From IMG/VR virus record IMGVR_UViG_3300037479_000183: 64,000 bases of DNA; one strand, given 5' to 3'. Shown in pieces: positions 39,707-63,840 of this stretch. This stretch comes from a virus. Position numbers and translations under genes: made by a program. The stretch's first letter is position 1. Each line of letters opens with the position of its first letter. Below the pieces are notes generated by a model. The model was not told the origin of the DNA. It made no database searches and saw nothing but the letters and a program-made list of their open reading frames with translations.

Positions 39707-40405
39707 TTGCCGCCCGGCCTAGCCGGTGGCCCGCTTGATGGCTTTTAGGATGGCGGCCTGCTTTGCCTTCTTGCTCGCCTTCTTTGGCAAGCCTAGCGAA
39801 GCGGGCCAAAGGCCCGACTCCTTGGCCCGCCTGCCAATCCCCGCGACGGGGACGATAGGCGCGGCGGCCTGCTCCTTCCGCCTTCCGTCCTCAACTCCGG
39901 TCGTCCGAAGGTCGTCATCGCTGATGTCGTGTTCGGCGTTGAAGTCGGGCAACTCGCCCGTCGCCTGCGGCCCGCGCCCGGCCCGGCCCTTGGGGGCCGC
40001 CTCTAGCCACGGCTTCAACTCCGGCGCGAAGGTGTCCGTTGGCTTCGGCGCTCGCTTCACGACATAGGCAATCAACTCCTTCTCCTGCTTGGTTGTCATA
40101 GACCCCAGTAGGCGTCCCAACTATAAATAGTTTTACACAGCGCGCCCTTCGCCCCGGACGGTATATAAAGATTTGCCCTATATGAACTTTTGCCCGCCCG
40201 CCGCCCGGCCCGCATATATAAACTTATGCCCAGCCCGGCCTGCCGCAAGCCTTATATAGAAGGGCAAATCGGTTTTCCGGGCCGATATATAAAGCTTTGC
40301 CCAGCCCATCCGTCCGCCCGCCGTCAGACACTCGCCGCGCCTGTGTCAGACAAACATAAGACGCAGAAGAATTAAAGGGAAGAAGGAAAAGTCGGCTTAG
40401 ACTCG

Positions 40406-41824
40406 CTACTTTCGAGTCTTTTTCGACTTGCGGGCCTTGGGCTTGCCCTTCCCGCGCTTCGGCTTCTTTTGTGCTCGCACGGCTTCGCACTTGGCGCAAC
40501 AACACCAAAGCTTAGGCCGCCTGACGTGAAGCCCCAAGACGGCGAAGCATCCTTCCGGCTTCTGTGGGTTCGGCTTCGACGGAAGGCACCACTCCACGCC
40601 GGGGCAATGGGCCGCCTGATGCTTGCGGTTTCTCGCCCGCAACTTGGTGATGCTTCCCGGTTTCTCCCGTTCAAGCACCAACCAAGACGTCGGTATCTTC
40701 CGGTCGATTGGCGAGAGGACGCCGTGAAGGGTTCCGCGCTTCCCTTCCACGTCATACGCGATGCTCCCATCCTCTAGGTTGATGGCAGATACCCTTACTT
40801 GCCCCCAGAGGTCGCGTAGTCCCTTCGGGCCGGGCGAAGGCATCCGACTTAGGGCGGCGTCATAGACGATTTGCCTTCCCGTCTTGTTTGCGTTTCGTGC
40901 GCGGTGAAGGTTCGCCACAATCCACGCCGGAACGTCGGTAAGGCGCACCTTACGCAACTCCGCCGCTATCTTAGGGTGTCCAATCCTCTCAAGCCACCCT
41001 TCGACCTTCCGCCCCGTTTGGGTCGCATCGACGCCCGCAAGCACTCGCCGGAACCTCTTGATGCTTCCCGCCGCCGCCACCTTGGGGATGGGTTGGCCCG
41101 CAAGATAGGCGAGGGGTCGCCCTTGAGGGGCGGCGATTGCGTAGATGCGTCGGTCTGCTTGCTGGCCCGCCAAGCCTTCGGCCAAGGCCGCCGCTTCTTC
41201 GGCGTCAAAGTCGCCTTCATTGTCGGCTAGGATGGCTTTGGCCCTCTCGCCCGCCGCGTCTAGGCCGCGTTCCGCCAAGTAATCGACGGTTCCATCATCG
41301 GCACTAGCGTGTATGTTGGCGGTTTCTTCCCACTCCACGCCAAGCACTTTACCGCCGTTCATCGGCACGTCAGCCGAGCACCTGACGACACTTCGACGCC
41401 CGACGCTTACCGAATGGTCACAACCGGGGCGAGAGCATTTCGTCATATCGTCCTTACTCTCTAGCCGAGAGCAACGGCTAACGACAAACGACTCCGTGCT
41501 TCGCACTTCGCGGTTAGTGTTGATGCTAACCCACTTGCCATCTACTAGCTTCCCGCCCTTCTTGGCGTCCTTTACCGCCTTCGCGTAGATGGCGGCGAAA
41601 GGCACCGTTTCATCTTTCGGGATGCGGGCCTTGGCCTGAAGCACCGTCGCCTTCCAGCCTTCGGGGCTTGGCGTGATTATCACGCGGCCCTCTCGCGCAA
41701 GGGCGGCGGCGGTTCGCGGGAACCACTCGCCCGATTTCGCTTTCGACGTAGCCGCTACCAACACAGCCACTAGCAAGCACAGCGGCCCGAGTCCTGCTAG
41801 CGCGCTTCCGATTTCTGCCGACAT
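40406..41824 (-). CDS. 472-aa basic hypothetical protein with Cys/His clusters
   Basis: Long ORF with an AGGTG RBS, upstream TATA cluster and downstream TTTCCTTCTT tract. Confidence 0.7.
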   Translation of the reverse strand: MSAEIGSALAGLGPLCLLVAVLVAATSKAKSGEWFPRTAAALAREGRVIITPSPEGWKATVLQAKARIPKDETVPFAAIYAKAVKDAKKGGKLVDGKWVSINTNREVRSTESFVVSRCSRLESKDDMTKCSRPGCDHSVSVGRRSVVRCSADVPMNGGKVLGVEWEETANIHASADDGTVDYLAERGLDAAGERAKAILADNEGDFDAEEAAALAEGLAGQQADRRIYAIAAPQGRPLAYLAGQPIPKVAAAGSIKRFRRVLAGVDATQTGRKVEGWLERIGHPKIAAELRKVRLTDVPAWIVANLHRARNANKTGRQIVYDAALSRMPSPGPKGLRDLWGQVRVSAINLEDGSIAYDVEGKRGTLHGVLSPIDRKIPTSWLVLEREKPGSITKLRARNRKHQAAHCPGVEWCLPSKPNPQKPEGCFAVLGLHVRRPKLWCCCAKCEAVRAQKKPKRGKGKPKARKSKKTRK

Positions 41825-42084
41825 ACTTAGGCACCTCTGACGACGATAGGCGGTATGAGTATAAATAGATTTGCCCGCCGCCCGACGTAGGCCCGCAGGC
41901 CGCCTTCGCCCGCGCCGATATATAAACTTCTCCCCTATATAAACTTATGCCTGCCTGCCCGTCGTCCATTTGTGAGAACAACGCTTACGAATATAAACTT
42001 TTGCCCGTCCGACACTCGCCCGCGCTGTGTCCGACACCCATCAGCCAAGCCCGGCCTGCCTGTCAGACAAATGGCGGCCCGGCC

Positions 42085-42180
42085 TGTTATATAAACTTAT
42101 GCTCTTTACATTTGTAAAGTTATATTCAAATGGTTTTTATAAAAATGTTACAATATTAATTTTACAATTGTAAAGTTGGA
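42085..42180. promoter_or_regulatory. AT-rich island with palindromes; candidate replication origin or operator cluster
   Basis: TTTACATTTGTAAA 42105-42118, TTTTTATAAAAA 42134-42145 and TTTACAATTGTAAA 42161-42174, inside GC-rich flanks. Confidence 0.5.
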
Positions 42181-43475
42181 GCGTCAGACAATCGTCAGAA
42201 TAAGCGACTTTTATAATAATCACAGAATCCGACTAACTGCGTTCCGGGATTTTACGTCAAGACTTGACGATTCGGTATTTAAACCAATCGGCGGGCCTTT
42301 TCGTCGCCGCTAGAGATGTCTGACAGTGAAAATCGTTTTTCCACAGTCTTTCGACGGTCGCCGCCAAGGGCTAGGGCTTCCCCTAGTCAGGGGCGGGCCG
42401 CCCGTTAGTCGTCGGGCGCTTCAGGCCCATTCCCGTTAGGGGGCAAATGACTCTGACGGAAGCCTTCGGCTTCTGCTGAAACAGTCCCCCGAGGGAATCC
42501 GTAGCGATGCGGATTCGGCGCTTCCGAAAGAAAACGGATTCGTCGGAATCGACCTGAAGGTAAACAAAGGTATAGGCTGGAAATGAGCCAGCCTGCCATC
42601 CCGCAAGAGAGGTGCGAAATGTCGCCCAATCTTGGCCTTGACGATTCATTTTCGTGGCTAGAGGGATTACCAGAACGCCACCATATCCCCCGGAACGGAA
42701 AGGCCCGGCCTCGGACTCGGAGGCCGCAAGCGTTCCGTTCTGAGCAGTATACCATTTTGGGGATACTGCTGGCCCAATAGTAGAGAGGCCCGGCAATACT
42801 GCCCGGCCAATGGGCCTGATTGGGGGTCAGCGGAGCATTGACCGGCCCCGCCATCGCGCAAGCCCGTAAGGGCTGGCCGGCCAATTGTAAGAGCGCCCTA
42901 TCAGGACTCGGCGGCTAGGCAGGCCGGAAGCAGGCAACCGGGCCGAGCGTTTTTTGGTGGGCAGGCGTGGGTGTTTATAAAGGCTTAGACCCCACCCTAA
43001 CGGATTCGGAAGTAAACAGGGTATTTAAACTACCCGCCCGCCTAGGCACCTCGCCGGGCCTTGCCCAACAGGGCTTGCCCGGCCTTTCCTTTTATGGCAA
43101 GCATAAATGAAATCGTCGAGGCCATCCACGCGGCTTGCCGTCAGGCGGCCATACCGGAGGCCAAAGGCGGGCTTGGCGAGGACTTGGCATACCAAGTCTT
43201 GCTTCGCTTGCTTGGGGACTTCGGCAAAGCGGCCAAAAGGCGGTATGCCGCGATGGAGTGGGAGAGGCCGATTATCGTCGGCCTTGGGTTGGAAGCCTGT
43301 ATCGGTTGAAACCGGGCTCGGCTACTAACGGACACAGCACGGTGATTTACTCTTACCGTTAGGCGGCTAAGGCCGCCAAAAGTCGCAGACTTTATGCTTA
43401 ACGATGGGCCGGGTCGGTTCTTCGTTAAGAAAGTCCCCGGTGGGGACTTAGTGCCAAAACACGGAGCGTGCGAAA

Positions 43476-43958
43476 ATGGCGAAGGAAGCGGAGAATCTGC
43501 TGGCGATGTCCAGCGGTGTAAAGCGCGTGGAAACGAAGAATGTGCGGAAGGAGGACGAGTTCGAGGCCAAGATGAAGGCCGCCGGAGTCCTTGAGGTCGG
43601 CTACCGCCGAACCAACAAGGGCAAGGAGGACAAGTCCACCGCCTATCTGACCCTCTCGCAAGAGGTGCTTCAGGAGGAGGAGGACAACGGTGGCAACGCC
43701 AACCAGCTCGTTCTGAAGGCGGTTGCGACGGTGCGGAAGGACAAGCAGGGGGACTACAAGATGTCGTCCTTCGGCTTCGGGATTTCCGGTCGCCGCAAGG
43801 ACAAGGACGAGAAGGAGTGGGTCTGGACTCGGGGAATAGTGTTGCGCCCCGAGCAGATGCGGCTCCTCATCGCCGAGGGCGGGGAAAGCGTGGCGGTCAA
43901 GAAGGTCGCCACGGACGCCGTGAAGCCCCTCAAGGCGATTCAGGCCGTCCTCGCATAG
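43476..43958 (+). CDS. First gene of the rightward unit; possible PC4/whirly-like ssDNA-binding protein
   Basis: FGFGISGRRK..WVWTRGIVLRPEQMRLLI resembles PC4-like folds; hairpin plus TTTCCTTCTT downstream. Confidence 0.4.
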   Translation: MAKEAENLLAMSSGVKRVETKNVRKEDEFEAKMKAAGVLEVGYRRTNKGKEDKSTAYLTLSQEVLQEEEDNGGNANQLVLKAVATVRKDKQGDYKMSSFGFGISGRRKDKDEKEWVWTRGIVLRPEQMRLLIAEGGESVAVKKVATDAVKPLKAIQAVLA

Positions 43959-43994
43959 ACGCGTCGGCGTCTTAACGATTTTTCCTTCTTACCT

Positions 43995-44085
43995 ATGCCT
44001 CTGGTTGTGGGTCATACCACCGTGAGGCAACCGTATGTCGGTGTATTACCAGCCCGGTGAGGGACATACCCAAGTAGACGGGCAT
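43995..44085 (+). ncRNA. Candidate structured RNA with tandem three-way junctions
   Basis: Closing helix ATGCC/GGCAT; inner helices GGTTG/CAACC and GTATGTC/GACATAC, each enclosing two short hairpins, one GTGA-capped. Confidence 0.45.
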
Positions 44086-44119
44086 CATTCCTTAGCGGAG
44101 TGGGGAGCCACCTTTAGCC

Positions 44120-44155
44120 GCGCCGCGTGTATCCGGGTTCAAATCCGGCGGCGCA
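44120..44155 (+). ncRNA. tRNA-like minihelix (acceptor-like stem plus T-loop only)
   Basis: GCGCCGC/GCGGCGC 7-bp stem enclosing CCGG-GTTCAAAT-CCGG; no D or anticodon arm. Confidence 0.45.
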
Positions 44156-44157
44156 CT

Positions 44158-44639
44158 ATGCCGTTTGACTACAAACGCGACAACAGGCATACGGGAATGG
44201 ATGGATTCCCACCCGATAATGATTGTGGTTGTTGGGATTGTGCGGCGATGGGTTGCGGAATGGGAGTCATACCTGACGACAATTCCTGTCAAGAGAATTG
44301 TAGAATCTGTAATCCCAAGGAGAAATGAACGTGGGGCTTTACGACACCTTCATAGATGGCGAGCAAGAGGAGCAGGTAAAGGCGTTCAACCCCTCTTTGC
44401 GCGTCTATCGCATTGGGGATGTGGTTGATACCGCAGGCCTGCCCAAAACGTGCGTGATTGCGATTCCCGATTACTCCAAACCAGCGGCGGAAGGAATCGA
44501 AGGCTTGCTACCGGGAAAGCGGTATGCGGTGAAGTGTTTTGTCATTATCGAAAATGGCATCTTCATTGGAATCAAAAAGTATGGCCCCGATGGGATTATC
44601 GTGTTTGATAAATGGGGCGGCACAATTCCGAAGAATTGA
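44158..44639 (+). CDS. Cys-rich 56-aa ORF (44158-44328) and a 104-aa hypothetical protein (44325-44639)
   Basis: ATGA coupling; CGCWDC..C..C..CxxC. Confidence 0.6.
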
Positions 44640-44904
44640 TGCCCTGCCGTAAGGCGGCGAGCCGAGAGGCCGCCGCGTGATATTACTGTGGGGTTTCCGT
44701 GCGGCGCAGACCTTAAAGATTGGGTGGAAAGCGCTAAGGCTGGAACAGAGTCCCAACAAAATCCAGCTCCCTCTCCGTGGCTTTACCACAGGATTCCAAA
44801 CTTACCACCCCATCCGTTGCCGTGGATTCGGTTGGATGAAGGACAGGGATATATTGGAAATGTGAAGCCGCCTCACCTCGGCGGCTTTCACAGAACGGGG
44901 CATC
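44638..44904 (+). ncRNA. Candidate ~265-nt multi-hairpin ncRNA
   Basis: Closing helix GATGCCC/GGGCATC; GCC-GTAA-GGC and GCC-GAGA-GGC GNRA hairpins; CCTTA/TAAGG, GCTGGA/TCCAGC, CATCC/GGATG and GAAGCCGCC/GGCGGCTT stems. Confidence 0.5.
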
Positions 44905-45041
44905 CCTGCTTTCCATTTAGCAAAAGGTGAAAGGATGGACACTTGCCGGATTTGCGGACTTGAACACCTGCTTACGGACTATCTCTATTTTCCCGAAGCC
45001 TGTATTGCCACGCTTGGAAAGAGGTTGAAGGAATTAGAGAA

Positions 45042-45114
45042 GGGCGCATAGTATAGTTGGTCAGTATGCCGGACTGTCTATCCGGCGACGAGGGTTCGAA
45101 TCCCTTTGCGCCCG
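45042..45114 (+). tRNA. tRNA-Asp(GTC)
   Basis: Acceptor GGGCGCA/TGCGCCC, anticodon arm CCGGA-CTGTCTA-TCCGG, T arm GAGGG-TTCGAAT-CCCTT, G73; no CCA. Confidence 0.93.
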
Positions 45115-45544
45115 TATGTCCGTGTCGAAACCACAAATAGAGGAGCCGCTATACTGCCGAGCTTGCGGGCGATATGGGACTTTCAATCCTTATTGTAATC
45201 GGTGCTATGAATCCTCTCCAAGAGGGGGTTGGTTCAGCCTTCCTAATATCTTCTGCCCCCATTGTGGAATGAAGAAAACAGGAGTGGAAACGTGTCCGAA
45301 AACTGTGAAGCCCCACTAGGATTCTTCAGAAAACTTGCTATCAGGACTCGCATCAGGCTAACAGAGCGCCGCTTTGAGCGCGCAATCCTACGAGGCGACC
45401 CGCGAGCAGGTGAGCATTTCGCGGCGTGGAATGAAGCCCTTACGCTACTGAGGTTATTCAAATGACGCCGCCTAAAGGCGCACTCATTTTGGTCGTTGCG
45501 ACAATCGCCGCCGCCATTATCATCCATCTAATCAGGTGAAAGAA

Positions 45545-45682
45545 ATGCCCGGCGCACTGTGTTCAGCCTGCCAGCAAGCCCAAGGCAGGCAGGCTTGCCC
45601 GCATCTGCCCGGCTTTGCCTGCCAGCGAATCGCCGGGCAAAAAGGATTCATTCCAATTCTATGCTGTTGCCGAGGCAACTAG
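45545..45682 (+). CDS. 45-aa Cys-rich peptide (not in ORF track)
   Basis: AGGTGA RBS; MPGALCSACQQ..C..C..ILCCCRGN. Confidence 0.5.
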   Translation: MPGALCSACQQAQGRQACPHLPGFACQRIAGQKGFIPILCCCRGN

Positions 45683-45689
45683 CGAGCCT

Positions 45690-45762
45690 GCCAGCGTAGC
45701 TCAACGGTAGAGCGTCCGGCTGTTAACCGGAAAGTTATAAGGTTCGACTCCTATCGCTGGCG
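45690..45762 (+). tRNA. tRNA-Asn(GTT), T-stem with a 1-nt bulge
   Basis: Acceptor GCCAGCG/CGCTGGC, D arm GCTC/GAGC, anticodon arm TCCGG-CTGTTAA-CCGGA, T loop TTCGACT; no CCA. Confidence 0.88.
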
Positions 45763-46756
45763 TAACGGCTGATGTATTATGGGTAGAATCTACAATAGGA
45801 AAAGCGGAGATTCGGGCTACTATAACAACAACCGTAAGCCGCATCACTTTTCACCAAGCCGTGGCAAAACGAAAAGCCGCCGGCCCGGCCCGGCCAAACT
45901 CAAAAGGGGGAAGGGGTGGAAAGAAGTGTTTGTTGCGACGAAAGAGGGATACATTGACATCAGAATACGACGGACACAGCGGCGCGTGTAGATGCGGCGC
46001 TTGCTTAGAGGCGTGGAGCGCGATTGGGCGGTTTGCCCAAACGATGGGGGATTACCGCCGCGCGTGGCGGGCGTTTGTAGCGGCCAAAGGAATCACCGAA
46101 GCGGGAAGGTATGTTCAGGAGAGGATGATTTGACCGCAACTTGGAGAGTCGCGGCTAGCTTCGTTGGGGGCATTGCCATATTTGTTGGCGTGGTTGCTGA
46201 TAGCTGGAAGATTGCCCTAATGGGAATAATGTTACAAATGTGGTCAGCCTACGATTTAGCATATGAGGCGCGATATGGGCGATGAATACCTTTACTTCAT
46301 TCAGCAAGGACTTGGCCACGATGAAGCGGAATGGGCGGCGGCTTTGGTCGCCGAGTTGGTTGAAGGGTTAACGTCGATGGAAGGGGTGGTAAATGCTGCC
46401 AAGCTGGATATGCGACCCTAATTGCCTTAACTGCGGTGGGAAGGGGAAGATTCCATACGAAAGTTATGGTATCAAAAGCAACTACCTTTGCCCCGTCTGT
46501 GTCAAGTTTCCCCCGAGAATCAACTACGAGGCTTACGATGAAAACGATTGAGCAATTCTACTTCGCCAAGTGGCGGCCTATCGGATTCTTCACCGGAAGT
46601 GCGGAGTGGTATTATGGAGAAGTGGAAAGATTCCCCGAACATAGTTGAATATAGAGGTCAAATCCTGACTGTGCCGGATGTAACGGTCATTACGCTTGAC
46701 GAGTTGACACAGGGCGAGATTGAGTTTCTACTACAAAATGAAAAGGGCGAGGAAGA

Positions 46757-47197
46757 ATGACCTGTAAAATTGAAGTGTTCAACGGGTTGAAGTATCAGTA
46801 TCACTCATCGTGCCGGGGAAGGTGTTTCCCAACAGCGCAAGAGGTGGCGGCCTGCCTAAGCGATGCTGGCCCACAAAGGGAGATAGATTTGGCCCGGCTA
46901 ACGCTCTGTGTGGAGAACAGCGGGGTATTTATCACGGTTCGCAACAAACGAAAGCGGTTGGTGGGATTCCTGCGAGCCATCACCGATTGGACTTACTGTG
47001 CTTATGCTTGTAGCGCGGCTGTTCTGCCTCGCTATCGAAGGCGGGGAGTGTGGCGCAAGATGAATGACGAGTTGCGCCGGATTCTAGGGCCGGGAGTTAC
47101 AATCCTAGCCCTCAGTCGCACAGAAAGCGCTCCATATTTCCCGGCTATTGGATTTCAGCAAGCCAAACGAGCGTGGATAATTCCAAGGGTGAGATGA
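46757..47197 (+). CDS. GNAT-family N-acetyltransferase
   Basis: LVGFLRA..AAVLPRYRRRGVWRKM (acetyl-CoA motif A)..YFPAIGF. Confidence 0.88.
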   Translation: MTCKIEVFNGLKYQYHSSCRGRCFPTAQEVAACLSDAGPQREIDLARLTLCVENSGVFITVRNKRKRLVGFLRAITDWTYCAYACSAAVLPRYRRRGVWRKMNDELRRILGPGVTILALSRTESAPYFPAIGFQQAKRAWIIPRVR

Positions 47198-47662
47198 ACG
47201 ATGAAGCCAAATCTGCCAGCGATTGAAGCGTTTGTATTGGAAAAGCACAAAGTTGTGGGCCACGACGCGGCGTTGCGGTGGATAGCCGCGCCCGCTGTGA
47301 TAACCAACATCGACAACGAACCTTTGCGGCTGGCCTTTATCGCCGAAGTGGAACACAAAACTTCATACGGATTTGAAGTAGAAGTGGCGAGCCATCAGGT
47401 TTCGATTGAGTTGGCAAAGGCAAGAGGTTGGATATGACACATACGCTAGCATCCATCAAGTTCGCCGTGTGGTGTGATGATTGTTCGGGTGGTGGTTACG
47501 AGCCGTATTGTATAGTCAATACGCTTGAAGAAGCGGAAAGGGAGAAGAAACAACACGACAAATGGCATAGGAAGTGAAATATGTTTTGCGAACAATGTTG
47601 GGATGACCACATCCCAATTCTGTCCAGCGGAACGTGTAAGTGTCGCTGTCATAGAGGTGGAT

Positions 47663-47739
47663 GAGGGTTTTAGTGTATTGGTAATGAAGCACGGGAGTCT
47701 GTGGAACTCTCAGCGGGGGTTCGATTCCCCCAGACCCTC
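47663..47739 (+). tRNA. tRNA-His(GTG) with genome-encoded G-1:C73
   Basis: 8-bp acceptor GAGGGTTT/AGACCCTC, anticodon arm GGAGT-CTGTGGA-ACTCT, T arm GGGGG-TTCGATT-CCCCC. Confidence 0.92.
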
Positions 47740-48387
47740 CTTATGAATAAACCACAGCGCAAACCTGCCGAGCCTTACGAAACGGATTTGGATGAAAAGA
47801 ATGAAGATGAGGATTACGAACCCGTTTAACCCAAAGTTGTAAAAAGAAGGGAAGGATATGCCGAATTGCCTTGCTTGTAGTGTGGAAGTCGAAGATGAAG
47901 GCCCGGCCCTAATTGGCCACCTTGAGGATAACCCGAAGTGCGCGGAGAAGTGGAGTTGGTGGTTGGTGGAGCTTGCCAATGATACGAGGGGGGCGTAGAT
48001 GAATCCGCTAGATGAAGCAAGGCGGCAGGAATTGGAAAGGCGCATCCTTACAAATGAGGCCGCCATTGAACGCCTTTGCGACGCTATTCGCATTACGAAA
48101 GACGAAACAAAGAAGAAGGAAATGTTCTGCCGAATTGGCACTATCGTAATCGCCAATCGCACGATTAAAGAGTTTTTGAGGAGCAAAGAGGATGAAGATG
48201 TGGCGTTGCCAATCTGACCACGAACATCCCACTTTTCAAGAAAAGCTTGATTGTGATGTCGCAACCGCCCGCTGGCTGGCCAAGTTTTACGGAGTCGATA
48301 CAACCGACTTGCCTGCCTGCGGCGGCGTAGCGTTGGTTGGCGCAAAGAAATCCAGTCAAGAGGAATGGATAGAGGAGCCGGAAGTCG

Positions 48388-48789
48388 ATGAGTCTGAGGA
48401 GTCTGATTGACATAGCAATCCGGGCCGCTTCGCGCAGTAATATGCGCCAGCGCCACGGCGCGGCCTGCCTTACCTATAAAGGTAGCATAGTTTATGGGTG
48501 GAATTGGCGAGCTGAAGGCAAGTTGAATCCGCACACGGCCCGGAAGTTGGGCTATCACGATTACTCCATTCACGCAGAAGTTGCCGCAGTTATGGAAGCT
48601 ATCGCTTGTGGTGAGCATCCGAAAGAGGTTTTGGTTATCCGCCGGATGCGAAGCGGCTTGTTCGGCCTCAGTCGCCCCTGCGGAGCCTGTATGGGGGTTT
48701 TGGAGTGGGCGGGAGTAAGGCGGGTTTATTATTCCAGCGGCCCGAATACGATTGAAGAAGTTCACCTAACTAGGGAAGTGAAGAAATGA
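48388..48789 (+). CDS. Zn-dependent cytidine/CMP deaminase-fold protein
   Basis: IHAE ... SRPCGAC. Confidence 0.9.
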   Translation: MSLRSLIDIAIRAASRSNMRQRHGAACLTYKGSIVYGWNWRAEGKLNPHTARKLGYHDYSIHAEVAAVMEAIACGEHPKEVLVIRRMRSGLFGLSRPCGACMGVLEWAGVRRVYYSSGPNTIEEVHLTREVKK

Positions 48790-51167
48790 CCACCCTTTGG
48801 GACGCCAAGATTGCGACTTTGCCAAAAGACGACGCGATTGAGATGATTAACTGTGTCCAAAGGACGCAAGAGATTTTTCACAACATCATCTACGAGAGGA
48901 TAAAGGGTTGGTTCCTTACCCATTCGGTCGATGACTTTGAGAACGGGCTTGATGGCGTGGAGATAGAACTAATTGTATATGTGATGGCTTGGCTTAAAGA
49001 CGCCTATTCAATGCCCGAAGAAATCGCGCGCCCTGTGTCCTATTGGTATGCGAAGAATTGGGTTGAAGGATTGCGCGGGAAGGTGGAAAGGTGAAGTGGA
49101 TAAGCGATAATGTTAGAACAGTTTTCCTCGACAGGGATGACAATCTAGTAGATGATGGGGCGTGTCGAGAAGGATTGCTTGGTAGTGAGAGGGAGAAGTG
49201 GTTTGCGCTGGAGATTGCTACCGTTAAGATGTTTGAGAAAGGCCCGCGAAAGGATGAAATGGGCGACCTTGCTCATAGATTTCTCTTTGAGCTTGTTCCG
49301 ATTGAATATTCGTTTGACGGCAGGATAGAGGGATGGGATGGCAGAAAGACTAAGCCGCAAAACACCCTTACCATTCCCCTTTCACCCGCAAGGCGGAATC
49401 CGCTTCAAATCTCCACAATTATTGGTATAGCAAGAACGGCCTTCTACCTAACTCGCTCGAAATCTAAGGATGTGGAGAAGGACGCAAAGCATATCCTTCG
49501 TGCTTGGAATATAAGGGATTTGCGGAAGAAAATGTGGAGGCTTGCGAGCATATGGGTGAGAAGCATTGAGGAGATTGGTTATGAGTCAAACATTTTCAAC
49601 AAACTTCAATTACCCATAGCTGAGTATGTCCTAACGGAAGCCTTCCCAGCGAAGGAACTGTTTGGCGAATACTCCAAAGGCAGGTTTGTTAATTGGAATG
49701 GTGTGGCAAGCAGGCCGCTGGCTAAGTTTGTGAAGGGCCGCTGGCCGAAATGGGAAAGGGTTGTAAAGGCCCTAGTTAATTACTGTGATTGCGGTTGCTG
49801 TAATGGGTGTAATGGAGATTTGGATGAGGGTGATTTTGAATGAGGCTAAAGGCCGCCATATTTGTAGATGGTGAAGTTGCTTGGAAAGACCCCGGAGAAG
49901 GGGGCTGTGGGGCGGTGTCCTGCCGGGGGCAGTTTGTCCCCCACCTTTTTGGTCGAGAACCGTATCGCCGCCGGAATGACTTTGGTTGGTGTATCAGGGA
50001 GCCGATTCGTAAAGTCATAAAGGAGAAAAAGAATTGGACTTTGGGAGTTTTGGCAGAGCCAAATACTTATAATTCATTTCACTTTGAACATCTCAATGCT
50101 ATCAACTCTGCGCTAGGCGGGGCGGCAAACGTCAAGCAAAGAGTAACCGATGGTAGATATGTTGGTTGGGATGGAGTTAGCAAAGGGAAAGTAACTGTCG
50201 AGGCGGAGATTGTATTTGCCCATCCTATTTCATATCTTCCAAATTACGTCGGCGGTATCATTGGATTTGTTCGAGATGTTCTACAGAGAAAGAATCAACC
50301 GTTTGGTTCTTTGGAGAATTATTCGCAGGGGGCGAGGGCGGGTATGGCCGACCCCCATTGTATGGAAATCGTTGGGTGTTGCGAGCCACCATATTTGGAA
50401 TGGCTCCTAACGCAAACGAATTGGAACCTCCCGCGCGGCGGCAGTTTTAAGGAGTGGTGGTCGGCAACAAAAGGAGTTTACTATCAATCTGACCGCCTCT
50501 TTCATCACGAATACGCCAAGCACGGTTTGCGAAAATCTGAATTTAGGGCGTGGGTGAGGGAGAAATATCCTGAGTGGTGGGAAAAGATGGCAAAGAGGAA
50601 CGGAGTTGAAGTCTAATGGGCAAATCACTATTTGATACTTGGAGAGAGAAGTGGCCCACGTTAGAGGAAGCTAAGGAAAGAATAGAGAAAGCGATTCAGA
50701 AAACTCAAGAAAAAGAGGAGATGGTAAAGAAAGCGAAAACGGTTACAACTACCGCCACGACAGCCGTTAAGCCTTCCTCAGTTGGCGATGCCAACCTTCA
50801 GGCGCTTGCGGAGTTGGTTGGAGAGGCGGCACTAGAACCCGACAAACCCGAAAGGAATACGCCGCAGGGTGTCAAGGATTTATATGATGCGGTGATGGAG
50901 TTTATCAAAACTGACGTTACTCCACCTATTACTGCCGATGCCAAAACGGTTCAAGACAATATGATTCTTGCTGAAATTGAAGGAGTTTGGGACATAGCCA
51001 ACTCAAAGAACAATGCGTGGGAGTATTTTACACAGCGCGTTGTGGAGGAGATAGACCAGATTCAGGAAATAAACATTACGTCGGGACTTCAATGTTCTTG
51101 GAATCATCTATACAGACGTTTGCGACAGCTTGCGATTGAAGCAGGAATGAGTGCGGTGAAAGTATGA
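48786..51167 (+). CDS. Four coupled hypothetical proteins (48786-49094, 49091-49843, 49840-50616, 50616-51167) leading into the ligase cluster
   Basis: Overlapping start/stop junctions; no recognisable family. Confidence 0.7.
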
Positions 51168-52102
51168 AGGTTACGTTGGGGACAGACCCGGAAGTATTTG
51201 TGAGCGATGGGGATAAGATTATCCCGGCGGATTGGGTCGTGCCGCCAAAGGACAAAGCGATGGCCCTGCCAAGCGGCGCGAAGATTTTCTTCGACGGCAT
51301 CGGATTGGAGCTAAACGTGGCCCCCACCGATACGCCCACCTCTTTCGCGCGCGCTGTGATGCTCGCAAAGAAGGAAGCCGAGGCTTACTTGGTAAAGAAG
51401 GGTTATAAGATGGTGGTTCTGCCCGCTGTTCCAATCGCTTTGGATACGATTAAGCGGGCGCATAAAGACGCACAGATTTTCGGATGCGACCCCGACCAAG
51501 TAGTGTATGAAATGGGCAAGCTTCGCAAGCCAACGGTTGACGCAAGGAATCATCCGTGGAGATATGCGGGTGGCCACATTCACGTCGGCCTGCCTAGCCT
51601 TTTGCCGGGCCTTCACTCTTGCGGCGAAAAGACAATCTACACCAATAGTTTCGACGGCTGGAAATGCTCGAAGTGTAAGGCGCAGGCGGATATGAGTGCG
51701 CTGATGCGAGTTATCGTAGCGCTTGACCTGCTTGGTGGTGAGAAGCTTCTTGCCGTTGAACGGGGCGTTCAGGATTCTTGGAGAAGGCGGAAGTATTACG
51801 GTGTTCCCGGCTCCTTCCGCTTCCAGCCGTGGGGGGTAGAGTGGCGCTTCCCAAGCAATCTGTGGCTAAGGAGCGAAGATGAGGCGAGGATGATGGGAGA
51901 GATGGCGATGAAGGCGGCTGAATTAAGCGCCGCCCTGCCCGCCTTGCTTAAGATTCCCGGGACGCGAGAGGCCATCAGCAACTTCAGAACTAGCCTAACC
52001 GATATGGCACTAACCGATAGAACATTTGATTGGGTTAGAGAGGAAGGAGAAAGGATATGTGCGGTATTGGCGGAATTGTCAAACTCGAAGGCGACGCAAT
52101 AG
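51164..52102 (+). CDS. phiEco32-like COOH-NH2 ligase (glutamine synthetase-fold amidoligase)
   Basis: LGTDPEVF, FFDGIGLELN, FGCDPD, RYAGGHIHVG, RRKYYGVPGSFRFQPWGVEWRFPSNLWL. Confidence 0.9.
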   Translation: MKVTLGTDPEVFVSDGDKIIPADWVVPPKDKAMALPSGAKIFFDGIGLELNVAPTDTPTSFARAVMLAKKEAEAYLVKKGYKMVVLPAVPIALDTIKRAHKDAQIFGCDPDQVVYEMGKLRKPTVDARNHPWRYAGGHIHVGLPSLLPGLHSCGEKTIYTNSFDGWKCSKCKAQADMSALMRVIVALDLLGGEKLLAVERGVQDSWRRRKYYGVPGSFRFQPWGVEWRFPSNLWLRSEDEARMMGEMAMKAAELSAALPALLKIPGTREAISNFRTSLTDMALTDRTFDWVREEGERICAVLAELSNSKATQ

Positions 52103-52950
52103 ACCCAAACCTATTGATTTCGCTACTAAATAAGCTAGATGGTAGCGGGCCAAAGGCGGTTGGTATTATTCTTGTTGGCAAAGAGGGCGGAGTGCTGACA
52201 ATCAAGACAACAAAAGGTTGGAGCGAGTGGGGGAAGGAGGAAAAGGAAAGCCTGAAGAACCGCGCTGGTGCGGCAAAAGCGGTGCTTGTTCACACACGCG
52301 CCCCAACTACCGGCCCCAACACCCTTGAAAACACTCATCCGTTTGAGGACTACGAAACCGGCCTATGGCTGGCCCACAATGGCGGGATTTTCAACCACGA
52401 TTCTATCTTCCAACTTCACGATTACAAAGGCCCTGTTGAGTGCGACTCGATGGCGGTTCTGTTGGAGTTTCTAACGCTTATAAAAGATAGCGGAACGGTT
52501 CAACACATCGCCGACTTAGAGGCAATAATGAGTGGTTGGTGGAATTGTTGGGCCTATCTTGCCAAGACCAACGACATCGTTCTGTTTACCAATATGGAAG
52601 GATTCAGGGCGGCGCAGAAGGATGGACATTTCATCTTTGCCAACCTCTCTTATGCTTTTGAGGGCGAACAACTACCAAGTGTGGTGAAGATTAATCTTGG
52701 ACAGGGAACGGACAAGCCGACCTTTACCTATTACCCCCTCGCCCCCGTGAAAACAGAAGTTGAAGAAGCGTTTAAGAAACTAATTGTTGCCGAAGATGAT
52801 AGACATTACCATCTTAAAATCCCTGAAGATGCTCAGAAAAGATTCCAAGGTTGGAAGTTGGCGGATAATGGCATCTTGATAGTGAGAAAGTATCAATGCG
52901 ATAAGGTAAAGAAAAATCGTATTTTGGGCATCATAAGAGGTGTGGGATGA
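52057..52950 (+). CDS. Class II (Ntn) glutamine amidotransferase 1
   Basis: N-terminal MCG, HTRAPT, NTHPF, HNG, CDS. Confidence 0.9.
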   Translation: MCGIGGIVKLEGDAIDPNLLISLLNKLDGSGPKAVGIILVGKEGGVLTIKTTKGWSEWGKEEKESLKNRAGAAKAVLVHTRAPTTGPNTLENTHPFEDYETGLWLAHNGGIFNHDSIFQLHDYKGPVECDSMAVLLEFLTLIKDSGTVQHIADLEAIMSGWWNCWAYLAKTNDIVLFTNMEGFRAAQKDGHFIFANLSYAFEGEQLPSVVKINLGQGTDKPTFTYYPLAPVKTEVEEAFKKLIVAEDDRHYHLKIPEDAQKRFQGWKLADNGILIVRKYQCDKVKKNRILGIIRGVG

Positions 52951-54356
52951 ATCCAGAGGAAATTGCGCGGCTAATGGATGCCGAGCCAAAACCAAAGCAT
53001 AACATCGCAGGCATCTACAACGAGTGGGATGCGGTGCCGGGCGGCCATACCCTTGACATTGGAGTTGAAATCGAAATCTACATTGGACGCAGAAGGGGAA
53101 GATTTTTTGCGCCATTCGGCGAGAATACGGATGACGGCTACATCCTCCACACTATTCTATCCAGATGTAAGGATAAGGTATTCCGCGACTATTATCCTCA
53201 TCAATTGGAAATCAGAGCTGGCCCCGGCAAAGCGCCGCAGGTAATAGAGGAGCTACAAACAACTCTTAAGGAAATTGGAGAGCTTCTTAGACCTTTCAAG
53301 TGTGGACTTCTATTTCGGTCGCGGTTTGGCGACTTCCAAACGTGCGGTCTTCACATTCACGCTGACGTATCCCTTTTTAATGACCGCCTAGATACTTTGG
53401 GAACGGCGATGGCCGTTTCCTACCTTCCCATCCTAATGAATTACGAGGCGCATCGGGATACAGAAACCAAACACTCAAGGATTGTAGATAATAAGTTTTC
53501 ACAGGCGGTCTATGATGTGGCCGATACGCTGGACAAATATCACGACCTTCACCTCAGCCCGGCGCGTGAAAATCCCGAAGGCCGCCATCGCTTAGTTAAA
53601 CCGATAACTTGGGAAACGCGCATATATGATACAGCGCCGCCGGAATCAATGTGGCACGGCATCTTGAAACATTCAGAAATCCTAAGCAGAAGCCTTCAAT
53701 TGGTGGAAAGCAATTCCGATTGTTTAAAGATTCCCGCCCGGCAAATCTTTGCGGCGGCGGTTAGATATAGAGGCAAGTTTTTCAACCAAGCCCCCGCTAT
53801 CTACAACTATCATAAGAAGATGTGGGCGTGGGTTGGGGCAGAGCCGGTGCCATCGGAGCAGGCAATCTGGACACGGTGGATACACTCGCTTGACATTTTC
53901 TCCAATGCTATTGTCCGAGAAATCAATGGGATTGATGAGCTAATTACCCACGTATTGCCATACAATCGCTGGCGGAAGCCGATGGCGGGCGATTGGGTCT
54001 TGAACGTGCTTACGCACGAATTGGGAAGATTCGATGAGATGGGAGAAGTAAGGTTACAAAATGGAGATATGCGTCCTTTTGACGTAAAGTTTTGGTATAA
54101 GGTGTTTACCTTTGAACCCGGACAGTATTATATAGCGCGGGTTATGAAGAGTGGGGTGGTGGAGTGGACACCACAAAACGTTAAAACGCCCGCAAAGGCA
54201 GATTTTGAAGGACTTGCTCCAAGCACAGAGCTAAAAATCATCAGCCAAGAGGTTCAGGACACGGTTCAGCTTGGCTTTATCGACCAAGTATCTAAGCCCG
54301 CCTTTGGGATTGTGAGGGCGGCTTATTCGGCGAATCCAAATCGTTGCCCGTTGTGA
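52947..54356 (+). CDS. Second GS-fold ligase (glutamate-cysteine ligase GCS2/amidoligase-like) with a C-terminal extension
   Basis: IGVEIEI, QLEIRAGP, TCGLHIHAD, TWETRIYD. Confidence 0.78.
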   Translation: MNPEEIARLMDAEPKPKHNIAGIYNEWDAVPGGHTLDIGVEIEIYIGRRRGRFFAPFGENTDDGYILHTILSRCKDKVFRDYYPHQLEIRAGPGKAPQVIEELQTTLKEIGELLRPFKCGLLFRSRFGDFQTCGLHIHADVSLFNDRLDTLGTAMAVSYLPILMNYEAHRDTETKHSRIVDNKFSQAVYDVADTLDKYHDLHLSPARENPEGRHRLVKPITWETRIYDTAPPESMWHGILKHSEILSRSLQLVESNSDCLKIPARQIFAAAVRYRGKFFNQAPAIYNYHKKMWAWVGAEPVPSEQAIWTRWIHSLDIFSNAIVREINGIDELITHVLPYNRWRKPMAGDWVLNVLTHELGRFDEMGEVRLQNGDMRPFDVKFWYKVFTFEPGQYYIARVMKSGVVEWTPQNVKTPAKADFEGLAPSTELKIISQEVQDTVQLGFIDQVSKPAFGIVRAAYSANPNRCPL

Positions 54357-54360
54357 GAAA

Positions 54361-55578
54361 ATGTGTGGTATAACTATATACGCAGGGAAGGAGCCTATAA
54401 CCTTCTATGAGGCGTTAAAGAGGACGCCTTATTGGAGAGGGGGCGATGGGCTAGGCGTGATGTGGCTTGAAGATGGAAAGATTCGCGTCCAGAAAAGCGC
54501 GGGCGCGGTTGAAAACTATCTTAAGGTTATCCTCGGAACAAGAGAAACCTTCTACTCAACTGATAAGTTTACCCTTCCCCCACTTGAAGCAACTAGCACG
54601 TTTTGGCTTATCCACAACCGAAAGGGAACGGTGGGTTCTTCCTATGATACAAAGAACAACCATCCCCACTTCCTTAAGGAGTATGGGGTGTGGGTGTTAC
54701 AGAATGGAACGGTTGTGGGTTTGGACTTCTATCGTGGCCTTCTAGAAATGGCAGGCGTGAAGTTTAACTCCGCCACGGATACAGAAGTGTTGGGCCACGC
54801 GGCTGTTCAACATATCATTCCAAAAATCCAAGAGATTTGTGGGAAAGCGGAAGATAAGTATAAGGCAGTAGAGGAGTTTCTGGAGCCATTCGCAAAAGCA
54901 ACGGCTGGCTTCGGCGTGTTTGTTGTTGTTGACCCCGAGAATAAACAAGTCCACGTTTTGAAGGATGATGATAGAACGCTGTGGCTGTCAAGGGATAATA
55001 CAGGGGGCGTGTGGCTCACATCGGAGATAGTCGTGCCGATTCAAAATGGAAAACTTTTTTCCACAGAAATCTACAATGGCTACATCAGACTTGACCTCAA
55101 CCAAGCAGACTTTACAGAAACAGCATATTACTATGCTCAAAGGTGTGAGGATTTGTGGAAGGTAATTCGCCAAGCAAAGCCCGTGGAGATGACCCACACT
55201 TCTTGCGACGCCTGCCGAGAAGAAAGATTGGTTTTCAAATGTGCGGAGTTTGATATTTGTTGGGAATGTATTGCCGATAACAAAAACAAGCCGGATTTTG
55301 GTGTAAGTTTTCGGGGGACAAGCGAGTGGGATGGGGGGAAGTGGAGCGACCCCACTCTAGCATACCACAAGACCCACTCGAAAGATGGCGCAACTCCATC
55401 TATCATTGATTTCAGCGGAGCAAAGAAGTTTACAGATTACAAAACGGGGAAGCCCGACGACCCCATTATCTCTCCTGTTAAAGAATTGGATATTTGGACA
55501 AGAAGTGTGGAGCAGATGGCGAACAAGATGGAGTTACTAATTCAGCGCGGTTGCGAAGAGGAAAGGGATTGTGAATGA
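54361..55578 (+). CDS. Class II (Ntn) glutamine amidotransferase 2 with a C-terminal Zn-ribbon extension
   Basis: MCG, WRGGDGLG, HNRKGT, NNHPH, QNGT, TDTE; later CDAC..C..CWEC. Confidence 0.88.
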   Translation: MCGITIYAGKEPITFYEALKRTPYWRGGDGLGVMWLEDGKIRVQKSAGAVENYLKVILGTRETFYSTDKFTLPPLEATSTFWLIHNRKGTVGSSYDTKNNHPHFLKEYGVWVLQNGTVVGLDFYRGLLEMAGVKFNSATDTEVLGHAAVQHIIPKIQEICGKAEDKYKAVEEFLEPFAKATAGFGVFVVVDPENKQVHVLKDDDRTLWLSRDNTGGVWLTSEIVVPIQNGKLFSTEIYNGYIRLDLNQADFTETAYYYAQRCEDLWKVIRQAKPVEMTHTSCDACREERLVFKCAEFDICWECIADNKNKPDFGVSFRGTSEWDGGKWSDPTLAYHKTHSKDGATPSIIDFSGAKKFTDYKTGKPDDPIISPVKELDIWTRSVEQMANKMELLIQRGCEEERDCE

Positions 55579-59501: not shown

Positions 59502-60464
59502 ATGAGATTTGTAATGCCTGAATATCCCCATATCCGCCGAATTGGAGATAGGGAGAATGAGGGAGTTTTGCGGTGCGATGCGTTGGCAATTGAGGAGAAG
59601 GTAGACGGTGCGAACTTTAGGTTTGCGCGCTTTGATGACGACCAAGAAGCGCCCCGCATTATCTTTGGAAGTCGTGAGCGGGTGCTTGGCCCCTTCCGGG
59701 GAAATGTATGGGTGAATAATAGTAGGCAATTCAAGAAGGTTATAGACTTTCTTTCTTCACGCTTAAAAGTTGAAGATTTGAATCCTTCTTTTGTTTACTT
59801 CGGGGAAGACCTCTCCCACCCACATACGGTCAAATACGATTCTGCGCCGCAGTTTGTAGGCTTTGATATAATGGCCATCGCACCCGAAGGGAGTGTTGTG
59901 GAGAGGAAAGGCGGGGCGGCATTTCTATCTACCGACGCTAAGCGCAAGGAGTTTGAAAGGCTCAGCCTAGATTTCATCGAACCTTGGAGTGTGTTGAAGA
60001 ATCCTCAGCCAGAAGAGTTGGAGGCGTTTCTAAAGCAAACAAGGTATCAAACTAAAATGCCAGAAGGCATTGTGATTAAAAACTATCAACGCCTTAATCG
60101 ATGGGGCAGACCGCTATTCGCCAAGATTGTAAATGAAGACTTTAAAGAAGTTAACAAAGCAGTTTGGCGTGGCATAAAGCGCGATAGGAATTGTGAAATG
60201 GAAATAGCAGAGGCATTTGTAACACAGCCGCGCGTAAGAAAAATCGCATTGAAGATGGTTGAGCAAGGAGATGCTGCGGCGTTGGAGATGGCGATGATGC
60301 CAACCCTCTATGCGAATGTAGTTTATAACGTGCTTCAAGAGGAGATTCATACGATTGCCGATAAGTGGCCGAGTATCGACTTCGGCCAGCTTAATAGAGA
60401 AGTCGCCAAGCAAACCGCCCGCCATTTGGAGGAGTTGATAGCGGAAAATGCTAAAGGAGAATAA
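59502..60464 (+). CDS. ATP-dependent RNA ligase, Rnl2-like
   Basis: Motif I EEKVDGANF, FGE, FVGFDI, motif IV EGIVIK, motif V FAK. Confidence 0.88.
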   Translation: MRFVMPEYPHIRRIGDRENEGVLRCDALAIEEKVDGANFRFARFDDDQEAPRIIFGSRERVLGPFRGNVWVNNSRQFKKVIDFLSSRLKVEDLNPSFVYFGEDLSHPHTVKYDSAPQFVGFDIMAIAPEGSVVERKGGAAFLSTDAKRKEFERLSLDFIEPWSVLKNPQPEELEAFLKQTRYQTKMPEGIVIKNYQRLNRWGRPLFAKIVNEDFKEVNKAVWRGIKRDRNCEMEIAEAFVTQPRVRKIALKMVEQGDAAALEMAMMPTLYANVVYNVLQEEIHTIADKWPSIDFGQLNREVAKQTARHLEELIAENAKGE

Positions 60465-61601: not shown

Positions 61602-63397
61602 ATGACTGACAAGTGCCCCAAGTGCGGCGGAAGAGGAAAGGATTTCGTGTGCTGTTCAGACCCTACTTGCCCCCCCAACGATTGTGATGATTGTGGAGCG
61701 ACCGGCAAGGCCCGAGTCGGTGGCGGAGAGGCTGGTTCAGATGGCAAAAATGAGGAAACCCAAACGAATAAGAAAGCACAAGAGACGGCTACCGAGCAGG
61801 CAGACACTCGCGGACGAGTTATGGATGACAGTAGGAGATTGACCCCCGCGAACCCCGGCCCTGGCGAGAAGCCGCTGACGGAGGAGGAGTTGCGAGGGGT
61901 AGAACGAGGATGGCCTCTAGCAGAGAGAGCCGCCCGCGAGATTCGCTCCCTCCGCACCCGCTTGGAGCAGGCCGAGGCCCGAGTGAAGGAATTACTGACG
62001 GTGCTATCTCGCTCTACAAAAAGCGAGCAGATGGAGATGGTTCTCAGGGAGCGCGACCAAGCCCGCGCTGAGGTGGAGAGGTTCAAGAGCATCTCAGATA
62101 GTTGGATGTTGACGGCCACCGAGAGATTGCGCCGCGCCGAGGAGTTGCAGGCTCAGGTCAAGGTCTTGCGCGAGGCGCTGCGCCCATTGCTGCCCGAATG
62201 TGAGAGGTGCCCAGAGAAGAACCGGAAACCTGCTTGGTGGTTGAGCGAAGTAGCATACGAAGACGAGCCGCTGTGGACCTGCGAAGAACACCGTCTTAGG
62301 GGGTCCGGCGCTGCTGGTAGGATGCCATCTACGGAGGAAACCGCGCAAAAGACAGGATGGGCCGCGCTCGCCAAGTCAGGCAAGGAGGCGAAGCGATGAA
62401 GTGCTACTCCGAATACTGCAAGGGTTCGAGAGAGATGGAACTCATGTGGGTCTGCGAGCATTGCGGTGAGCGCAAAGACTCGACTGGCACTCTTGCTCCA
62501 GGTTACAGGGATTACTCAGGCAAGGAGGATGAGACGAAATGACCCACTACTGCCCGGCCTGCGAACTGACCTTCGATGAGGGTCCATCATCCTACCAATA
62601 CATCGACCATCTTGAGTGGCATTTGCGTCAGGATAGCGGGACGGTGATGCCCGGCCAGTTCCCCGGTCAAAGCACGACCGGCCCAGGACCGCAGTTCATC
62701 CCGACGGGATACCAGCAGGGCAACGAAGGCGCCGCCGCCAAGCCCGCGCCCCGTGAGGAGAGGCGTGAGGGGTGCGTGAGATGCGCCCTCCTCGGTCGAG
62801 AGGGACGCTTACCTGGGGGCACTCATCTCCCAGCGCACACCTGCGGAGGCACCGGGAAGCGAGCCGGGGGTGGGGAGTGATGCTAGATGTCCGGCCAGTG
62901 GTCGACACCAAGCAGACCGACCTCTATGGCAAGCGCATCTTTCTTGTCCCCCATGCCCTCGGATGGGCCATCTATCGGGTCGAGCGCCGCGCTGAAGGAA
63001 AGTAGGTGAAGGATGAATCATATCTGTTACGGCCCTGAAGGGAGACACGATTTCAAATGTCCGGGACATCCAAATGGCCACTATCTTATAATGCCATGTT
63101 GCGAGGAGCATCACAAATATATGGTTGCCGAGATGCGTTGTTGGAATTGCGCCCGTGGATACTTTGATTGCGTGAATAGCGAGCATGACTGTTGTCCCAA
63201 GTGTAAGCATGATACATTGTAAACTATGTGAGGGAACCGGGCCCGGCCTACGAATCCGTTGCCTGCTTTGTAACACCATAATTCAAAGCAAATACAGACA
63301 TGACTATGTAAAGTGTAATTGTGGACAGGCAGCCATTGATGGCGGCGACGCCTATACTCGTATTATAGGAGATAAAAGATGGTTGGAAATGTTATAG
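61602..63397 (+). CDS. Run of small hypothetical and Zn-finger ORFs (61602-62399 coiled coil, 62539-62880, 63013-63222, about 63209-63397)
   Basis: Coupled ORFs; IRCLLC..HDYVKCNCGQAAIDGG is a recurrent phage Zn-binding family. Confidence 0.6.
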
Positions 63398-63840
63398 ATA
63401 GATTTGATGGAGAACATCGGTTTCTTTCTAACTTCTACTCACACTTTCTGGGCTGGCTAGGCAGGCTTTGGCCCTCAGCCGAACACGCTTATCAATGGAG
63501 TAAGACGGACAACTTTCAATGGAAAGAACGAATCCGCCTAGCCGCCTCGCCCGGCCAGGCCAAGATATTAGGCAGGCAGGCCCCGCTGCGGCCGGGCTTT
63601 CACGAAATTAAAGTGGGAATAATGGAGGATATCATCTTTGCTAAGTTTGCCGATAAAGATTTGGCAAAGAAGTTGATTAACACAGGCGGGGCGTGGTTGA
63701 TTGAGGGCAACGATTGGGGCGATACGTTTTGGGGGGCGGTGAGGGTTGATGGGAAATGGCGCGGACAGAATCATCTCGGTAAGACGTTAATGTTAGTGCG
63801 GAATTGGTTGATGGAAAATGAGAACAGCAGATTGGTATAG
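63379..63840 (+). CDS. NADAR (YbiA-like) hydrolase
   Basis: FLSNFY, WPSAEHAYQ..K, AKF..LINTG..LIE..DTFWG..GQNHLGKTLMLVR. Confidence 0.93.
   Translation: MVGNVIDRFDGEHRFLSNFYSHFLGWLGRLWPSAEHAYQWSKTDNFQWKERIRLAASPGQAKILGRQAPLRPGFHEIKVGIMEDIIFAKFADKDLAKKLINTGGAWLIEGNDWGDTFWGAVRVDGKWRGQNHLGKTLMLVRNWLMENENSRLV

Follow-up and report, generated by a model that had tools for sequence, protein, structure and literature searches.

Viral tRNA (transfer RNA) genes are usually explained by codon supply or by replacement of cleaved host tRNAs, and why they are carried is an open question. Here we ask whether tRNAs could also act as processing signals for the messages behind them. The question is raised by a locus in the IMG/VR virus record IMGVR_UViG_3300037479_000183, of which 64,000 of 69,261 bases were analysed (the window). 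Three tRNA genes and a 36-nt hairpin resembling the top half of a tRNA lie on its plus strand, and two of the tRNAs as well as the hairpin are directly followed by an ATG (Table 1). Judged from the sequence, the evidence leans towards leaderless messages being generated by tRNA excision.

Table 1. Features of the tRNA region and their positions in the window.
Feature	Position	Strand	Remarks
Archaeal TATA boxes (42974, 43024), the last clear ones ahead of the tRNA region	42974..43031	+	presumed promoter function
tRNA top-half mimic, 36 nt	44120..44155	+	7-bp GC acceptor-like stem, 7-nt linker, short bulged T-stem
56-aa Cys-rich ORF	44158..44328	+	2 nt past mimic; stop overlaps next start (ATGA at 44325)
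38-aa CxxC ORF, SD-led	44935..45051	+	stop is tRNA-Asp nt 8-10 (TAG)
tRNA-Asp(GUC)	45042..45114	+	64.9 bits; no CCA, G73, U37 in anticodon loop
67-aa zinc-ribbon-like ORF	45116..45319	+	1 nt past tRNA-Asp; four CxxC pairs; no SD
tRNA-Asn(GUU)	45690..45762	+	68.4 bits; no CCA, bulged T-stem, TATA-like word at 45735-45742
70-aa basic ORF	45779..45991	+	16 nt past tRNA-Asn; short leader, not leaderless start
27-aa Cys-rich ORF, SD-led	47581..47664	+	TGA overlaps G-1 and A1 of tRNA-His
tRNA-His(GUG)	47663..47739	+	51.8 bits; body 47664-47739, encoded G-1 at 47663, G-1:C73, no CCA
28-aa acidic ORF	47743..47829	+	3 nt past tRNA-His; no SD; absent from protein collection
aa, amino acids; bp, base pairs; nt, nucleotides; ORF, open reading frame; SD, Shine-Dalgarno site.

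Start codons behind tRNA genes

The tRNAs were called with ARAGORN and Rfam, and a CCA end is encoded in none of the three (0/3). tRNA-Asp ends at 45114 and is followed by a single T and the ATG at 45116 (gap 1 nt). Behind the end of tRNA-His at 47739 the letters CTT precede the ATG at 47743 (gap 3 nt), and behind the end of the hairpin at 44155 the letters CT precede the ATG at 44158 (gap 2 nt). tRNA-Asn ends at 45762, 16 nt before the ATG at 45779, and is the single tRNA without an abutting ATG. The original prediction had listed these junctions and gaps, and all were confirmed on the sequence. An ATG is expected 0-3 nt after a random position with p=0.073-0.076. For three of the four elements (three tRNAs and the hairpin) to abut an ATG p is 1.5e-3, or 1-2e-4 if an ORF of at least 28 codons is required, both values being post hoc. 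The layout is genuine and exceeds chance.

The stops of the upstream genes either overlap the tRNA or end 7 nt before it. As all three tRNAs of the window (3/3) carry TAG at nt 8-10, the stop overlap at tRNA-Asp may be passive, and a stop at this position was not accepted as design. The anticodon loop of tRNA-Asp (CUGUCUA, 45073-45079) carries a pyrimidine at position 37, as do 12 of 596 viral tRNAs sampled and 4 of 17 Asp tRNAs. U37 was rejected as a sign of a dead tRNA-Asp since the same loop occurs in 4/17 viral and several bacterial tRNA-Asp genes; a U37-type loop is also present in some chromosomal tRNA-Asp genes of Planctomycetota.

The virus mostly uses SD-led starts, and sites of the GGAGG/GAGGTGA kind precede most plus-strand genes. 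We scored 34 correctly placed starts for pairing with the anti-SD sequence. The starts behind tRNA-Asp (-0.5 kcal/mol) and tRNA-His (+0.1 kcal/mol) are the weakest of all, while the other 32 reach -3.8 kcal/mol or better; the start downstream of tRNA-Asn (45779) scores -5.3 kcal/mol. The claim that the abutting starts leave no room for a ribosome-binding site is thereby extended for tRNA-Asp and tRNA-His, where pairing itself is lacking. The ORF behind the hairpin does show pairing (-5.0 kcal/mol), but the site falls inside the hairpin stem. Moreover, no gene ends at the three abutting ATGs to permit coupling.

Promoters were searched with a profile built from the virus's own promoters (30 training sites, 29 of which score at least 9 bits). 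No convincing virus-type promoter was found by this profile in 43100-48500, the best score being 6.7 bits, and scores are negative at the positions expected for a leaderless promoter. Promoters inside tRNA-Asp, tRNA-His or the hairpin that would drive leaderless transcription were rejected (-4.7 to -9.8). The sole TATA-like word in 43025-48474 lies inside tRNA-Asn (45731-45742), where it causes the bulged T-stem; its profile score is weak (3.6). Owing to the lack of virus-type promoters, the tRNAs are probably cut from a long transcript. Its likely source are the TATA boxes at 42974 and 43024. A T5 tract at 43979, between these boxes and the tRNAs, may terminate transcription, and promoters of a non-TATA late type may exist in the region.

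The hairpin and the reading frames behind the junctions

The hairpin is closed by seven GC pairs and folds with -18.6 kcal/mol (z -2.2). Its T-loop TTCAAAT occupies 44138-44144, and A44155 is unpaired in the manner of a discriminator. Scanning the window for GGTTCRANTCC returned one exact copy outside the three tRNAs, namely 44136-44146 in the hairpin. A T-loop motif with a nearby closing helix of 6 bp is expected 0.007 times per simulated window. The hairpin is not called by ARAGORN and matches no Rfam family. A split, permuted or intron-containing tRNA was rejected, as no matching 5' half was found by eye, by ARAGORN or in Rfam. In metagenomes 26 matches to the 3' part were obtained which do not share the sequence of the 5' stem, and all copies of the hairpin found are near-identical. 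Upstream, 43979-44119 comprises a T-rich tract and then a structured non-coding stretch reaching the mimic, including a further hairpin at 44095-44121.

Two features expected of a t-element, i.e. a small tRNA-like fold acting as cut signal, are present: the T-loop motif lies in a stem, and the acceptor-like stem of seven GC pairs leaves A44155 free. The third, a tRNA-like stack of acceptor and T-stem of 12 bp, is not; the hairpin stacks 10 bp (7 + 3 with a bulged G, or 6 + 4). To our knowledge, the 12-bp stack is a feature of tRNAs, and we know of no strict requirement for it in t-elements. A cut by tRNase Z would be predicted after 44155 from the helix end, or after 44157, exactly at the AUG, from tRNA numbering of the T-loop.

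Whether the hairpin is a working cut signal is close to balanced, and we adopt this reading tentatively. Equally, its role could be to fix where the structured RNA upstream ends. A plausible, if less than probable, alternative is that it is a decayed tRNA piece or an attP-like remnant, or serves solely for RNase P to mark the 3' end of a structured RNA at ~43995-44119, with an ATG that is incidental or an internal Met of a 97-aa frame. The short stack speaks for this, as does the lack of a U8 after the acceptor strand, and truncated tRNAs serve as attP in HF2-like viruses (PMC8707807, PMC7230728). Decay leaves unexplained the perfect 7-bp GC closure 7 nt before the T-arm, given its low expectation. 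For an attP one would look for an integrase, and none was recognised among the ORFs scanned in the window, which are not all of its ORFs, ~5 kb of the contig lying outside.

The ATG at 44158 indeed lies within a 97-codon frame, as its codon 42; this frame starts at 44035 and is the one selected by gene callers. However, the codon score of this extension is non-coding, and in a variant contig of 997 bases the sole difference (G44103A) is a stop in frame upstream of the hairpin that leaves ATG 44158 onward intact and breaks the 97-aa frame. Both findings favour a start at ATG 44158, with the caveat that a single variant change could be an assembly error. The codon score of the 56-aa ORF itself is borderline (5% of null). 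Behind tRNA-Asp, the 67-aa ORF matches Zn_ribbon_3 below the cut-off (E=2e-4), and its language-model recognition score (2324) lies just within the range of known families. Its codon score is poor and falls in the null range. The 28-aa ORF behind tRNA-His exceeds all 207 null ORFs in codon score, partly due to its richness in Glu and Asp. Protein searches returned no homologues of the 56-, 67- and 28-aa ORFs. Taken together, the coding evidence for the three abutting ORFs is indirect and mixed.

Independent assemblies are identical (100%) over 40035-45085 and 45696-49530, and 99.9% identical over 43852-44848. The stretch holding the junction of tRNA-Asp and ATG (45086-45695) lies outside the coverage of the matching assemblies.

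The layout in HGTV-1 and other genomes

No relatives covering the tRNA region were found via the terminase, a 160-aa ORF, the hairpin or tRNA patterns in viral and genome contigs; related terminases and LonB occur only on contigs of 2-7 kb, away from tRNAs. Unrelated controls were therefore used, namely HGTV-1 (KC292026), other haloviruses, archaeal cell genomes and IMG/VR.

In HGTV-1, the next feature behind 20 of the 36 tRNAs is a further tRNA, in 19 cases at a distance of 1-8 nt. Six of the 16 remaining tRNAs have an ATG 1-5 nt downstream which opens 32-150 codons, with no TATA box (p=0.004 against the local background). The six tRNAs are Val(GAC), Arg(UCU), Arg(UCG), Ile, Glu and Ala. Four of the six ORFs are annotated at that start, and the genes at these junctions include an HNH endonuclease. 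Five of the other ten free tRNAs are followed by a new TATA box within 45 nt. Three archaeal cell genomes together show 4 such junctions in 78, as compared to 6 of 16 in HGTV-1 (Fisher p=0.001). In the IMG/VR sample, which is biased since loci were chosen by the presence of an ATG, a contig of 373 kb (IMGVR_UViG_3300003310_000099, L075) has five of seven scattered tRNAs with an ATG 2-4 nt on, opening 62-195 codons, and several further contigs have two such junctions. The tRNAs of HF2, HVTV-1, HCTV-1, HSTV-2 and HRTV-7 do not show the layout. It is hence a trait of certain genomes, present in some and absent in others, a pattern more suggestive of a chosen design than of universal packing. We found no paper noting this layout in HGTV-1, and neither leaderless starts nor processing come up in a 2026 paper on the HGTV-1 tRNAs (PMC13532342).

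Several further observations were made in these genomes. In the HGTV-1 segment L035 (record 41500-54500), gp56 is apparently annotated 12 nt too late, an ATG lying 1 nt past tRNA-Val. An unannotated 32-aa CxxC ORF follows tRNA-Ile and ends just before gp78, and a T-arm scan yielded an unannotated tRNA-Ser-like gene (L035:5948-6030). Non-coding, partly self-complementary spacers of 85-320 nt after tRNAs (L035:10670-10805, 11530-11849, 8490-8608, 4202-4286) are candidate non-coding RNAs from tRNA processing. In HCTV-16 (L318:450-923) an HNH gene homologous to HGTV-1 gp102 ends within tRNA-Gln, at its nt 8-10, as the 38-aa ORF does in tRNA-Asp of the window. In a Bathyarchaeia genome (G001; L243, L249), an ORF of 173 codons lies 4 nt behind a tRNA-Arg and one of 245 codons 1 nt behind a tRNA-Thr, counted past CCA.

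Proposed processing and its relation to known systems

The virus is a tailed double-stranded DNA virus. Its minus strand encodes terminase, portal, major head and tape-measure proteins; its plus strand carries small genes, an RNA ligase and an amidoligase-type cassette. An archaeal host is indicated by an archaeal-type LonB, ~30 TATA boxes at 35-43 kb of the window and a DUF7501 protein. A GNAT acetyltransferase, a cytidine-deaminase-like protein, the RNA ligase and a NADAR protein are encoded at 46757-47197, 48388-48789, 59502-60464 and 63379-63840, respectively.

RNase P cuts at the 5' end of tRNAs and tRNase Z cuts after the discriminator. We propose that the tRNAs of the virus would be part of a single long RNA that also carries small genes. 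RNase P of the host would cut at the 5' ends of the tRNAs and host tRNase Z would then cut behind the discriminator, releasing 3' fragments that start 1 nt (Asp) or 3 nt (His) before the AUG. Leaderless initiation on these fragments would replace the promoter or SD site that the genes lack. The 36-nt hairpin would be a t-element-like stand-in with the same role for the 56-aa ORF and its coupled downstream gene, and the structured RNA preceding it would obtain its 3' end by an RNase P cut at 44120. The SD-led small ORFs running into tRNA-Asp and tRNA-His would lose their stop codons upon RNase P cleavage. The predicted leaders of 1 nt (Asp), 3 nt (His) and 0-2 nt (hairpin) would fit, on paper, the leaderless class of 0-5 nt before the AUG as defined in Haloferax (PMC4983044).

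For the enzymology, the original prediction is in line with a methanogen tRNase Z, whose cut falls behind the discriminator and requires a mature 5' end and an acceptor stem, the D and anticodon arms being dispensable (PMC7479834); the tRNAs here are CCA-less. Its idea of leaderless RNA made by tRNA cutting fits the missing SD sites and promoters, the archaeal signs and the repeat in HGTV-1. That processing is a control step 'licensing' translation is unsupported, and its link to the retention of the hairpin is still conjectural. That tRNAs and minimal mimics are kept partly as cut signals, by which a silent polycistronic RNA would be converted to leaderless mRNAs (messenger RNAs) while the same cut deletes an upstream stop and switches expression, is in our view doubtful.

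Several points weigh against leaderless messages made by tRNA excision, besides the short stack of the hairpin, the poor codon score of the Asp ORF, the missing homologues and relatives, and the haloviruses without the layout. Among 197 other viral tRNAs, starts at a gap of 0-5 nt (14/197) are no commoner than at 12-17 or 18-23 nt. A C after the discriminator slows some RNase Z enzymes (PMC7479834), and C is the nucleotide found there in tRNA-His and in the hairpin. The efficient leaderless translation ascribed to archaea proves lineage-dependent, with 72% of transcripts leaderless in Haloferax, 11-16% in methanogens and 12% in Thermococcus (PMC4983044). Leaderless initiation may be weak in the present host, because most starts are SD-led. 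Moreover, we found no paper showing archaeal translation of a leaderless RNA with 5' monophosphate, as a tRNase Z product would be.

Alternatively, the junctions might reflect tight packing without function, in which tRNAs are excised for their own sake and their trailers decay, the ATGs being fortuitous or opening tiny ORFs that stay unexpressed. The coding evidence just named would agree with this, and so would the composition of the trailers, which often begin with T and favour ATG and TGA alike (29 versus 27 of the 197 viral tRNAs); the cases here are also only three, picked after the fact. Nevertheless we consider packing unlikely, given p of ~1e-4 once ORF length is counted, the four CxxC pairs in the Asp ORF, the ATGA coupling together with the nonsense variant at the 56-aa ORF, and the HGTV-1 junction genes, which are long, annotated and include the HNH endonuclease. 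Finally, real ORFs could have been inserted behind tRNAs and be translated from the uncut transcript by SD-independent internal start or reinitiation, cutting then ending expression; SD-less leadered initiation is described for haloarchaea (PMC3986360), and mobile genes flank tRNAs, the HCTV-16 homologue of gp102 lying upstream of a tRNA instead, but this is quite improbable, as a folded tRNA directly 5' of the AUG should block 30S loading, no upstream gene terminates at these ATGs, and all nine cases here and in HGTV-1 lie at 1-5 nt and use ATG.

If leaderless messages are indeed released by tRNA excision, mRNA processing would be a further, undescribed role of viral tRNAs and a mitochondrion-like mechanism in prokaryotic viruses. 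It would raise the question whether archaeal ribosomes initiate on leaderless RNAs with 5' monophosphate. Genes at such junctions may be overlooked or assigned a wrong start in annotation. The idea is testable in the cultured HGTV-1, the host of which has been sequenced and the tRNAs of which are poorly explained by codon supply (PMC13532342). A literature search, thin on subscription journals, returned no paper on tRNA punctuation in prokaryotic viruses.

The arrangement is probably a viral variant of tRNA punctuation, known from animal mitochondria (Ojala, Montoya and Attardi 1981, reviewed in PMC3790967). There, as here, CCA-less tRNAs border directly on coding regions at either end, and the stop of the gene in front may lie within the tRNA. 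The mitochondrial transcript is polycistronic, as is proposed here, and almost leaderless mRNAs are released from it by RNase P and RNase Z, which likewise might happen here. In contrast to mitochondria, an archaeal virus would depend on host enzymes, the junctions involve only a few small genes, most genes being SD-led, and the present case is predicted from sequence.

For the hairpin, the closest parallel may be the t-element before the 5S ribosomal RNA of Haloferax volcanii (Hölzle et al. 2008, as cited in PMC4326828). Haloferax t-elements are cut in vivo by RNase P and tRNase Z when used to release CRISPR RNA (PMC4326828). By analogy, a small archaeal tRNA-like fold would direct tRNase Z to the 5' end of the downstream RNA. 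Here this RNA would be an mRNA starting at the AUG, and the hairpin has 10 stacked pairs. Plant mitochondrial t-elements share GGTTCRANYCC folds whose ends are 5' or 3' ends of mRNAs, but mostly leave leaders of 66-459 nt (PMC1920247), as opposed to the 0-2 nt predicted at the hairpin.

Among viruses, HF2 has a 41-nt minihelix (L029:4377-4417) with the same plan of acceptor and T-arm, but 28 nt before the next annotated start. The attP tRNA fragments of HF2 are partial tRNA folds as well, yet lack the 5' acceptor strand and lie beside an integrase. A second T-arm element is located at ~2920-2946 of the same segment; both elements are unannotated and lie between early genes. Another RNA-cut route to a short leader may be present in HF2, where an annotated hammerhead ribozyme (L029:10292-10371) ends 11 nt before the helicase start. 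HGTV-1 shares the promoterless junctions of tRNA and ATG at 1-5 nt, six in number. It differs in being unrelated and in having a haloarchaeal host in which leaderless initiation is dominant.

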